Sequence record: PQ571289
Origin: Escherichia phage EF1-1
Direction: 5' to 3' (one strand)
DNA: 64,000 nt
The translations under genes and the position numbers were made by a program. A model generated the notes under the pieces. It was given only the letters and a program-made list of their open reading frames with translations. It had not been told where the DNA came from and made no database searches. Below, in pieces: positions 21,774 through 23,664 of this stretch; position 1 is the stretch's first letter, and each line of letters opens with the position of its first letter.

Positions 21774-22178
21774 TTATTGAAGTTTAAGTGAACCACGAAG
21801 ACGTTTCTCTTGCTGATCACGGATATATTGTGGAACCTCGTGAATTGAATCATTACCGTGCCTATTTTCAACAACTAAAGAGATAACTTGATAACCAAAC
21901 TCTTCAGCAAGAGCTAGATAAGGTTTAAGTTCTTTCTCTGTGGTTGAAGTATTAGAAACAATAATCTTGTTAAGATTAGATGCCATAGCATCACGAACAA
22001 TACCCTGACACCAAGCGTGTGCTTTACCTACATTTTCTGGCTTCCAATCGTAAACACCACTTTCTGTGTAATGATATTGATCTGCCTCACAGATAGGCCA
22101 ATAACCTTCAGAAATAATTTCTGCTACTGTAGATTTACCAGCACCTGAAACGCCACGTAAAATGATAAGTTGTTTCAT
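21774..22178 (-). CDS. P-loop polynucleotide kinase-like protein
   Basis: ILRGVSGAGKST Walker A and IIVSNTSTT, resembling the kinase domain of T4 Pnk as recalled. Confidence 0.55.
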   Translation of the reverse strand: MKQLIILRGVSGAGKSTVAEIISEGYWPICEADQYHYTESGVYDWKPENVGKAHAWCQGIVRDAMASNLNKIIVSNTSTTEKELKPYLALAEEFGYQVISLVVENRHGNDSIHEVPQYIRDQQEKRLRGSLKLQ

Positions 22179-23111
22179 TTATCCTCCAAAGAAGTTTTCA
22201 ATTTTTTCACGTCGCTCTTGCTGATTTAAAGCAGCCCATTGAGTCTTCGTAAAATTATTTCGAATCCATTCTAACAAAGCGTAATATTCTTCGTCAACAA
22301 TTTGTTTGGCATTTTTTGGATTATCCCAAATCAGATCCCACTTTTTATCTCCACCGCGCATAAGAAACTTCTTAGTAAGATAGTATGGTGACTTAATCTT
22401 TAAGAGTAAGTTAAACGGATAGTTTGTTTCACGAACTACAAACCCTTCGTGTTTACAATGTTTAGACATTTCAACAACATCTGAAAACTTAACCATTGGA
22501 TGAACTTCAGGACGCTTAAATTTGGTGACAGAAGCAATTCCATCAAGAGCACCTTCAGGTAACATAAAACTTGTCCCATCAGGATTTTGAATTCTGGCAC
22601 CAATTAAGTATGCACCTGGTTCTTCTTCGACAATATGCGGATCAGAAGGATCACAGATTTCAAAAAGGAAAGTTGCTTTTGCACTCTCTGTCCATTTGAT
22701 GAAATGTTCTATGTCATCACACTCTGAAACAATATGATTCTTTGCAATACTTGCAAAATCTGATTCAAGGCTTCCTGTTGTCGATACAATAAGTTGACCT
22801 TTATATACACCTACAGAGGCCATAAAACCATTTACTTTACGAACCACATCTACAAATTCATCCGCTGGTAGATCTGTGCCATTCTCAAAACGATTAAAAA
22901 TCTTAGTGAAAGGCCAAATAACAACATTATCATCAGCGTCAACAACGATTCCGCGACATTCTAGAAGACGAGAATCAATGTTCCATAGGTTATCCCAGAA
23001 AACTTTGTTCTTATACTTAAGAACAGATAGACCAGAATACTCTCCTTCTTTATATGTTTTCTTATGAACTAAACCTTTTTCAACCAAATCGTCGCAATTA
23101 AATTTAGTCAC
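22179..23111 (-). CDS. RNA ligase-like nucleotidyltransferase (putative)
   Basis: KVNGFMA (KxNG motif I); flanked by kinase and phosphoesterase. Confidence 0.45.
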   Translation of the reverse strand: MTKFNCDDLVEKGLVHKKTYKEGEYSGLSVLKYKNKVFWDNLWNIDSRLLECRGIVVDADDNVVIWPFTKIFNRFENGTDLPADEFVDVVRKVNGFMASVGVYKGQLIVSTTGSLESDFASIAKNHIVSECDDIEHFIKWTESAKATFLFEICDPSDPHIVEEEPGAYLIGARIQNPDGTSFMLPEGALDGIASVTKFKRPEVHPMVKFSDVVEMSKHCKHEGFVVRETNYPFNLLLKIKSPYYLTKKFLMRGGDKKWDLIWDNPKNAKQIVDEEYYALLEWIRNNFTKTQWAALNQQERREKIENFFGG

Positions 23112-23112
23112 A

Positions 23113-23664
23113 TTACTCTCCTTTGATTATTTTGTGATGGTCTACAGTTACGATATCTCGTTTACTCATCATAGAAATTATCTCATCAAAATGCAAGATT
23201 TTTCCGTGTGCATCCCAACCCACATCTAACATTTTACCATAAGCTTCATCAGGGAAAGATCCGTGGGAATGCCCGTGTAGCATGATTGATCCACGACCTT
23301 GTTTATTCCAGGAGGCAATAGGGTAATGGCTTAAGACGAAGAACAGCTTCTGGTATTTCACTTCGTCATAATACACCACTTCGCCATACTCTGCAAGCAC
23401 TTCTCGGTGCTTGCTGTAATCATGGTTCCCAACAAGATAAGTGATATCCCCTTGCAGACGGGAAGCAATCTTACGGGTATCTTCTTCAGTCCCGAAACAG
23501 AAGTCGCCCAAATGCCACATCTTAACACCAGGAGTAGTAGCGCATTTATTCCATGCTTCGATCAGTGCTTCTGTCATGTGGTCCATATCTTCCCACGGTC
23601 GATATTCAGGAGCAAACTCTCGTATACGTTTGTGCATAAAATGCAAATCACTTGTAATAAACAT
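23113..23664 (-). CDS. calcineurin-like metallophosphoesterase
   Basis: DLHF, GDFCFG, GNHD, GHSHG metal-binding motifs. Confidence 0.7.
   Translation of the reverse strand: MFITSDLHFMHKRIREFAPEYRPWEDMDHMTEALIEAWNKCATTPGVKMWHLGDFCFGTEEDTRKIASRLQGDITYLVGNHDYSKHREVLAEYGEVVYYDEVKYQKLFFVLSHYPIASWNKQGRGSIMLHGHSHGSFPDEAYGKMLDVGWDAHGKILHFDEIISMMSKRDIVTVDHHKIIKGE

Follow-up and report, generated by a model that had tools for sequence, protein, structure and literature searches.

A predicted RNA end-healing and end-sealing gene triad in Escherichia phage EF1-1

In a 64,000-nucleotide (nt) stretch of DNA from Escherichia phage EF1-1 (sequence record PQ571289; the whole stretch is hereafter called the window), we analyzed three adjacent genes on the minus strand at positions 21774-23664. 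They encode a P-loop kinase (21774-22178; an open reading frame (ORF) of 134 amino acids (aa), sequence MKQLIILRGVSGAGKST...), a ligase (22179-23111; 310 aa, with a GTG start and the segment ...VRKVNGFMASV...), and a metallophosphoesterase (MPE; 23113-23664; 183 aa). The triad is predicted to constitute a phage pathway for RNA end healing and end sealing, to which we assign a probability of about 0.7 on the basis of the comparisons described below. A putative 5'-kinase, a candidate 3'-end phosphoesterase, and a predicted RNA ligase are all present and genetically linked here, with gaps of 0 and 1 nt between the three genes, whose adjacency, strand, and ORF limits are exactly those given by the first-pass annotation of this DNA. 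A pathway like that of T4 Pnkp and Rnl1 is the best reading of the triad. What was demonstrated for these genes is how they are arranged, to which families and folds their products belong, that the active sites are conserved, and that the genes are linked and in some phages fused. Healing and sealing of RNA ends is well supported on this basis; the individual enzymatic activities, the order of steps, the RNA substrate, and a role in counter-defense are inferred.

Family, fold and active-site assignments

The kinase matches Pfam AAA_33 (E = 2.7e-10; 41.1 bits against a cut-off of 27), phrog_2071, which is named 'ATPase' (2e-56), and phrog_505, which is named 'polynucleotide kinase' (7.9e-8). 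Its Walker A motif, G9-VSGAGK15-S16-T17 (GVSGAGKST), conforms to the GxxxxGK[ST] pattern, and K15, D33, and R106 are invariant across 22 homologs. Comparison with T4 Pnkp by hhalign gave a probability of 97.2% (E = 3.2e-11); only the kinase domain of the T4 enzyme (residues 1-149) was aligned, with D33 at the position of the catalytic D35, H36 at R38, and R106 at R122. When the family profile was searched against PDB, the top hit was Pnkp1 (4xrp, 4.7e-6), followed by a Rhizopus kinase chain (9d8a), which is probably the Mucorales RNA 5'-OH kinase of PMC11571804; T4 Pnk and the Pnk domain of Clostridium thermocellum also ranked high, among other P-loop kinases. Moreover, Foldseek comparison of the AlphaFold model (pLDDT 90) with PDB placed T4 and C. 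thermocellum polynucleotide kinases at all of ranks 1-18 (TM 0.73-0.80), and adenylate and gluconate kinases reached a TM of only about 0.5. Judged by sequence and model together, the product is predicted to be a stand-alone P-loop protein of the polynucleotide-5'-kinase type.

The ligase is recognized by Pfam RNA_lig_T4_1 (PF09511; E = 5.7e-16; 59.5 bits against a cut-off of 28.3) over profile positions 1-227 of 227 and by phrog_562 (2e-70), and the protein database contains 2678 proteins of its family. When T4 Rnl1, as encoded in the T4 genome, was compared by hhalign, the probability was 96.5% (E = 7.4e-10) over T4 residues 34-266. In this alignment, K92, G95, E151, E222/G223, and K238/K240 correspond to the T4 motif residues K99, G102, E159, E227/G228, and K240/K242, respectively, and R53 and K70/F72 correspond to the upstream ATP-site residues R54 and K75/F77. 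Motifs I, III, IV, and V and the upstream Arg, Lys, and Phe residues are all invariant in 15 homologs with identities down to 49%, including the K92-V-N94-G95 signature. The kinship with T4 Rnl1 emerged only through Pfam and hhalign, and HMMER searches of PDB with the single ligase sequence and with the family profile returned nothing useful. By its sequence, the protein belongs to the Rnl1 family, in which it is short and divergent, and is a predicted ATP-dependent RNA ligase.

The MPE belongs to phrog_547 (1.2e-55) and on its own scores just below the Pfam threshold (Metallophos_2, 22.6 against 27 bits). Its metal-binding residues, D6-x-H8, G53-D54, G79-N80-H81, H113, and G131-H132-x-H134, are invariant in 25 homologs with identities down to 36%. 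Both the family profile (4.4e-22) and the AlphaFold model (pLDDT 94; TM 0.71) found 1xm7 of PDB, the Aquifex protein aq_1665, as the best match. This is the sole close solved relative of the phage protein and belongs to an orphan clade with no assigned function. The next Foldseek hits were YfcE, MJ0936, LpxH, Mre11, and a Pseudomonas putida nuclease MPE, at a TM of about 0.5 or below, and the profile search of PDB found neither Pnkp phosphatase nor lambda phosphatase. The sequence and the model thus establish a binuclear MPE of the aq_1665 clade with an intact binuclear site. We consider it a candidate 2',3'-cyclic phosphodiesterase and 3'-phosphatase, i.e., a putative 3'-end healing enzyme; hydrolysis of RNA 2',3'-cyclic phosphate and 3'-phosphate ends by MPEs has precedent in another clade (PMC2190708, PMC3675462). 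The first-pass annotation had described a P-loop kinase, a KxNG nucleotidyltransferase, and a calcineurin-type phosphoesterase with all metal-binding motifs. All three descriptions agree with our results: the Walker A motif of the kinase is intact and its best matches are the T4 and Clostridium polynucleotide kinases, the KVNG of the ligase is invariant and two methods place it in the Rnl1 family, and every one of the DxH, GD, GNH, H, and GHxH motifs is conserved in the MPE. The alignments of the three families comprise 15-25 homologs each and extend to identities as low as 36-50%.

Gene linkage across viral loci and alternative explanations

Searching IMG/VR with the ligase alignment, we obtained 80 loci with identities of 37-88%, which form 37 clusters at 70% identity and lie on contigs of about 4 to 300 kb. 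Neighboring genes were called by family hidden Markov models within 5 kb, and this distance applies to all locus counts below. Kinase and MPE homologs were both found in 57 loci, a kinase only in 13, an MPE only in nine, and neither in one, so that 79 of the 80 ligases have at least one of the two partners and 66 have an MPE homolog. The gene orders include MPE-ligase-kinase, kinase-ligase-MPE, ligase-MPE-kinase, and inverted arrangements, and this shuffling favors selection on linkage over inherited synteny. In 11 loci (L053, L057, L059, L061-L064, and L066-L069), kinase and ligase are encoded together by a single unbroken frame of about 430 aa containing both Pfam domains (e.g., positions 4536-5834 of L057), and none of these loci has an MPE homolog in the flanks. 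In the group of L082, where the orthologous kinase seemed to be absent, the gene that separates the MPE from the ligase encodes another, Pnk-like kinase of AAA_33. The earlier proposal that the three genes act together therefore gains strong support from gene neighborhoods that are conserved, rearranged, and fused.

The same data bear on the possibility that the three genes have unrelated functions and adjoin one another merely through inherited synteny, in which case the ligase could be a tail-fiber attachment factor like T4 gp63, the MPE a phosphatase of proteins or nucleotides, and the kinase a nucleotide kinase. In favor of this explanation are the name given by PHROG, 'RNA ligase and tail fiber protein attachment catalyst', which derives from T4 gp63, and the many loci in which the kinase or the MPE family is solitary. 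It is opposed by the linkage across 37 ligase clusters with shuffled orders and by the gene fusion, by the closest structures of the kinase, which are polynucleotide kinases rather than nucleotide kinases, and by residues 267-374 of T4 gp63, which are unmatched in a ligase that gives no sign of a tail-fiber role. We consider this explanation the least probable of all.

Among 80 kinase-anchored loci, the full triad was found in 36, an MPE only in 14, and neither ligase nor MPE in 30. The neighbors of the 44 kinases that have no Rnl1-like ligase nearby include RNA ligases with PF09414 and PHA02142 OB domains (six ORFs), MPEs (eight), and HD phosphohydrolases (three). Since these neighbors include a second, unrelated family of RNA ligases, the kinase is repeatedly partnered with RNA ligases and phosphoesterases.

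The solitary kinases are relevant to another explanation, that the chemistry is as proposed and its purpose is the handling of phage or host RNA during normal infection, for example the phosphorylation of 5'-OH ends left by an endoribonuclease of the phage, which would expose those mRNAs to decay by host RNases, or the tidying of self-inflicted breaks. A study by Durand et al. in 2012 is said to have assigned T4 polynucleotide kinase a role in RegB-dependent mRNA decay. This role, the 30 kinase-anchored loci with neither partner, and the position of the module within a block of nucleotide-metabolism and replication genes would all suit such a purpose, and the analysis yielded no anticodon nuclease target. 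The marking of RNA for decay needs no ligase, whereas 79 of 80 ligases here come with a healing partner, in 11 cases as a fusion with the kinase. The associated Thg1, Swiss-army-knife HAD, and cREC genes described below are of a repair type, and no RegB-like gene was found, although no search was aimed at one. This purpose is possible but unlikely in our view.

A third explanation assigns the genes to the processing of DNA ends: the MPE would be a nuclease or 3'-phosphatase for damaged DNA, the kinase would act on DNA 5'-OH ends, and the ligase would seal, in the manner of the bacterial repair clusters with a ligase-associated MPE (PdeM). T4 Pnk works on DNA too, a P. putida nuclease MPE (6nvo) is found at Foldseek rank 18, and an ATP-dependent DNA ligase gene lies near the RNA ligase in 30 of the 80 ligase loci, as it does here (19907-21034, minus strand, 375 aa, downstream of the module). 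The MPE also has a weak NCBIfam match to PdeM (TIGR04123, the ligase-associated DNA-damage-response endonuclease; E = 0.0029), but its score of 17 bits against a cut-off of 150 led us to reject that identity. In addition, the ligase that is tightly linked or fused belongs to the Rnl1 RNA-ligase family and not to the DNA ligases, the alternative partners of the kinase are likewise RNA ligases, and three unrelated small genes separate the DNA ligase gene from the module. A DNA-end function is therefore rated as distinctly improbable.

RNA end healing and sealing is also the setting suggested by genes that adjoin the triad in some relatives: Thg1 (a 3'-5' polymerase), a Swiss-army-knife RNA-repair HAD protein, and an Rv2179c-like 3'-5' exoribonuclease. 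Macro, NAPRTase, and PRPP synthetase genes adjoin the triad in relatives as well. These additional repair and Macro/NAD-salvage genes are found at L004:2854-3561, L006:1359-4198, and L054:7939-9040. When the window was searched with T4 Rnl1, T4 Pnkp, and proteins drawn from related loci (Thg1, Macro, NAPRTase, the Swiss-army-knife HAD, the Rv2179c-like exonuclease, and an HD protein), only the ligase was found, as a weak hit. A search of 185,579 species genomes for the ligase family gave four hits, three on contigs that carry the label of a metagenome-assembled genome and the fourth on a fragment of 554 bp, and thus offered no cellular context. The cassette is thus essentially confined to phage and viral sequence.

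The module was first described as consisting of three genes. These three are indeed contiguous, and the module is probably larger. Two genes upstream on the MPE side, an ORF at 24032-24388 (minus strand, 118 aa) matches Pfam cREC_REC (PF20274; 7.1e-14; 52.7 bits against a cut-off of 27). A cREC homolog is present in 10 of the 80 ligase loci and lies between the ligase and kinase genes in six of them. The domain was named in a survey of jumbo phages by Iyer et al. in 2021, which predicts that it processes cyclic phosphates by opening 2',3'-cyclic phosphate and reports operonic linkage of cRec to RNA ligases (PMC7824862). We regard cREC as a probable accessory of the module. Some records label this ORF 'RNA ligase and tail attachment protein', a case of annotation drift.

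Between the cREC and MPE genes lies an Arn.3-like gene (23664-24020, minus strand, 118 aa), which belongs to phrog_839, a family with no assigned function, and has 44-46% identity to Arn.3 proteins of T-even phages. The protein is found in 1569 phage records, but near the ligase in only three of 80 loci, and it is probably a passenger rather than a functional part of the module. Its label in some records, 'anti-restriction nuclease', is likewise annotation drift, the protein being a homolog of Arn.3.

Proposed pathway and comparison with known RNA repair systems

In the proposed pathway, a metal-independent ribonuclease would cut RNA, most plausibly tRNA, and leave one end with a 2',3'-cyclic phosphate and another with a 5'-OH. 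The 134-aa kinase would transfer a phosphate from a nucleoside triphosphate (NTP) onto the 5'-OH, with K15 and S16 binding the NTP and D33 serving as the general base. The MPE, as an enzyme of the Mn2+ type, would open the cyclic phosphate and strip the 3'- or 2'-phosphate to give a 3'-OH, and cREC, where present, may perform the ring opening. The Rnl1-like ligase would then be adenylylated on K92, pass AMP to the 5'-phosphate, and join the ends. Because the three genes are packed with gaps of 0-1 nt in a block of early genes, their products would be made together. By analogy with T4, in which Pnkp and Rnl1 reverse the damage done by PrrC, the role of the pathway is likely to be the reversal of host defenses that cleave RNA.

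Several observations weigh against this pathway or against parts of it. In the kinase, the nearly invariant H36 stands where T4 Pnkp has the essential Arg38, a residue that contacts the 3' phosphate of the substrate. The sole invariant Arg of the lid, R106, aligns to T4 R122 and not to the essential R126, and the column under R126 is variable, in a loop where the alignment is uncertain. In the ligase, the motif Ia lysine of T4 Rnl1, K119, which a 2003 study by Wang et al. reportedly found to be essential, aligns to T112 within an invariant S-T-T-G segment. Nothing in the phage protein aligns to T4 residues 267-374, a stretch that takes in most of the C-terminal domain, and the phage protein ends about 45 residues past the aligned region. 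It also fails the NCBIfam equivalog model of T4 RnlA (TIGR02308), with 24.8 bits against a cut-off of 242. Owing to this low score, the Thr at motif Ia, and the unmatched C-terminal part, we do not file the ligase as an RnlA ortholog. The C-terminal domain of T4 Rnl1 confers tRNA preference; as that tRNA-binding domain is undetectable in the phage ligase and the motif Ia lysine is missing, specificity for tRNA should not be assumed.

The MPE lies outside the clade of Pnkp and lambda phosphatase, and its substrates are not readable from its fold. Lambda phosphatase appears only at Foldseek rank 34 (E = 0.018; TM 0.40), and no chain of the C. thermocellum Pnkp phosphatase domain is among the top 50 hits. 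Gene linkage is also incomplete when viewed from the partners: besides the 30 kinase-anchored loci mentioned above, 43 of 80 MPE-anchored loci have neither an Rnl1-like ligase nor the kinase nearby. Furthermore, no paper on the cassette was found in the literature searched, which left out the 2016 survey by Burroughs & Aravind.

The first-pass annotation had linked the module to a large tRNA cluster as a sign of counter-defense against tRNA-cleaving host systems. The cluster itself is real: ARAGORN and Rfam agree on 11 tRNA genes on the plus strand at 28677-30586. The argument drawn from it is circumstantial, as is any link between the cluster or anticodon nucleases and the module. The cluster lies 4.3 kb from the nearest gene of the module and on the opposite strand, and only 12 of the 80 ligase loci have a tRNA gene near the ligase, although flanks of 5 kb are too short to judge whole genomes. 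The set of 11 lacks tRNA-Lys, which is the target of PrrC and PARIS. We speculate that a phage without a tRNA-Lys of its own would be compatible with counter-defense against anticodon nucleases. One member of the cluster is unusual: at 29460-29545 (plus strand), ARAGORN reports an 86-nt tRNA-Asn(GUU) with an encoded CCA and a long variable arm, the class II shape of Ser, Leu, and Tyr tRNAs, which is atypical for Asn.

The closest functional parallel is T4 Pnkp (pseT) with Rnl1 (rnlA), which is likewise encoded by a phage and reverses tRNA cleavage by PrrC. The kinase of the window shares with T4 Pnkp the fold, the P-loop, and the catalytic Asp, and the ligase shares with Rnl1 the Pfam family, motifs I, III, IV, and V, and the upstream Arg, Lys, and Phe residues. 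The two systems differ in several respects. In T4, 3' healing is carried out by a DxDxT (HAD) domain fused to the kinase, whereas the window has a separate MPE and the kinase match to T4 Pnkp ends at residue 149. The window kinase is minimal, with 134 aa and a His in place of Arg38, and the ligase has 310 aa, compared with 374 aa in T4 Rnl1, and a Thr in place of K119. In addition, the genes are contiguous in the window, whereas pseT and rnlA are 1.4 kb apart.

Bacterial Pnkp-Hen1 systems combine equal chemistries. C. thermocellum Pnkp carries out the same three reactions and uses a binuclear MPE as its 2',3'-phosphatase (PMC3675462, PMC2190708), and its kinase domain is among the best structural matches of the window kinase. 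It is a single kinase-MPE-ligase polypeptide, whereas the window cassette consists of three genes with an Rnl1-like ligase, and its MPE is of the lambda-phosphatase type rather than the aq_1665 type. None of the genes adjoining the module matches, or is annotated as, a methyltransferase family, and hence there is no Hen1-like partner among them. Unlike Pnkp-Hen1, which is bacterial, the window cassette is essentially confined to phage contigs. In Capnocytophaga gingivalis Pnkp1-Rnl-Hen1 (4xrp; PMC4411300), healing and sealing reside on separate cooperating proteins, as in the window cassette; that complex is a bacterial heterohexamer that needs Hen1, and its ligase and phosphatase families differ from those of the window.

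Similarities also extend to eukaryotes. Fungal and plant Trl1 and the split system of Mucorales (PMC10946426, PMC11571804) combine three activities, those of an Rnl1-type ligase, of a cyclic phosphodiesterase, and of an RNA 5'-OH kinase with a P-loop, and the Mucorales kinase stands alone like that of the window. The 2H cyclic phosphodiesterase of Trl1 leaves a 2'-phosphate that is later removed by Tpt1, whereas the window has an MPE and cREC, with no 2H or Tpt1 gene seen. In Runella slithyformis, an overlapping HD-Pnk and ligase gene pair was predicted to be a repair pathway from its clustering (PMC6097658), and a metal-dependent phosphoesterase again replaces HAD. The HD domain is fused to the kinase in this bacterial system, whereas the MPE of the window is a separate phage protein. 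The Runella ligase undergoes adenylylation but sealed none of the substrates offered to it (PMC6097658), which calls for caution in the prediction made here.

Among phage systems, the jumbo-phage survey places cREC beside an RNA ligase, as in the window, and describes calcineurin-like phosphoesterases that replace HAD phosphatases in the RNA repair systems of a few jumbo phages (PMC7824862). The survey covers jumbo phages, whereas the window cassette occurs in Stephanstirmvirinae of about 150 kb and in many smaller viral contigs; its available text yielded no description of the triad of a short Rnl1, a 134-aa kinase, and an aq_1665-type MPE or of the kinase-ligase fusions. An MPE in place of a HAD phosphatase and activities split among genes, which the first-pass annotation had singled out, are both present here. 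With the precedents of bacterial Pnkp and of the jumbo phages (PMC7824862), the use of an MPE is not new in principle, and what differs is the clade of the MPE.

Overall, 3' healing by an MPE (Pnkp-Hen1), the separation of healing and sealing (Pnkp1-Rnl-Hen1, Mucorales), and calcineurin-like phosphatases in phage repair (PMC7824862) are already known. To judge from the sequences, it is the combination that differs: a phage-specific short Rnl1, a minimal kinase that is stand-alone or fused to the ligase, an MPE of the aq_1665 clade, and an optional cREC. As its logic is that of T4 Pnkp/Rnl1 and of bacterial Pnkp, no concept is overturned. More tentatively, and with somewhat less than even odds, the triad may represent a distinct, phage-specific, and very widespread RNA repair architecture, in which the aq_1665-clade MPE heals 3' ends, the kinase is minimal, the short Rnl1 is targeted through physical coupling to its partners, and cREC is an optional opener of cyclic phosphates. 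The RNAs open to repair by this complex could be more varied than those of the T4 system, or other ones, for instance tRNAs cut by HEPN, Cas13, or PrrC-type defenses.

Defenses that cleave tRNA or other RNA, such as PrrC, RloC, Cas13, and the effectors of retrons and PARIS, form a major arm of bacterial immunity, and to our knowledge T4 is the only phage whose countermeasures beyond spare tRNAs have been worked out in detail. If the predicted pathway is correct, RNA repair would be a common phage strategy, given a ligase family thousands strong that almost always has a healing partner. Genes now called 'ATPase' or 'phosphoesterase' in coliphages that are therapeutic candidates and in Klebsiella phages would receive proper names, the aq_1665 MPE clade would receive its first function, and compact new enzymes for the manipulation of RNA ends would become available.

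Genome setting and neighboring genes

Shigella phage SF1-1 matches the stretch at 21000-24500 with 99.2% identity, and for many Escherichia and Klebsiella phages the value is 97-98%. In all, 121 phage records match the stretch, and in 56 the match spans 80% or more of it; those with taxonomy in their records belong to Stephanstirmvirinae, genus Phapecoctavirus; the source phage of the window is a member of the Phapecoctavirus group. Public records label the kinase 'ATPase', the ligase 'RNA ligase (and tail fiber protein attachment catalyst)', and the MPE 'phosphoesterase/metallophosphatase'.

The module is set in a long minus-strand block of early genes for nucleotide metabolism and replication, and the GC skew changes sign near 27-28 kb of the window, a point beyond which the plus-strand tRNA cluster is found. 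Besides the DNA ligase gene described above, a gene for a MazG-like nucleotide pyrophosphohydrolase is found downstream of the module (18789-19514, minus strand). Scans of 18500-28700 gave 39 promoter-like sites, compared with 32.5 +/- 6.8 in shuffled sequence, and eight terminator-like sites, compared with 5.7 +/- 2.7, with no excess of either; because these scans perform no better than on shuffled sequence, the limits of the operon were drawn from gene packing alone.

Relative to phages ZCKP1, ESCO25, and SF1-1, the window has a 564-bp insertion at about 25550-26113. It carries an ORF (25489-26094, minus strand, 201 aa) with an AP2 DNA-binding domain just below the Pfam cut-off (E = 1.3e-7) and looks like a mobile insert of the homing-endonuclease type within the early-gene block. 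In the genome of ZCKP1 (NC_047994), three genes are annotated upstream of the block, their equivalent places being at or just past the left edge of the window: a Sir2 protein at 3249-4049, a NinI/lambda-type Ser/Thr phosphatase at 9969-10712, which is a second MPE and belongs to the Pnkp-related clade, and a short fragment annotated as 'histidyl tRNA synthetase' at 11049-11621.

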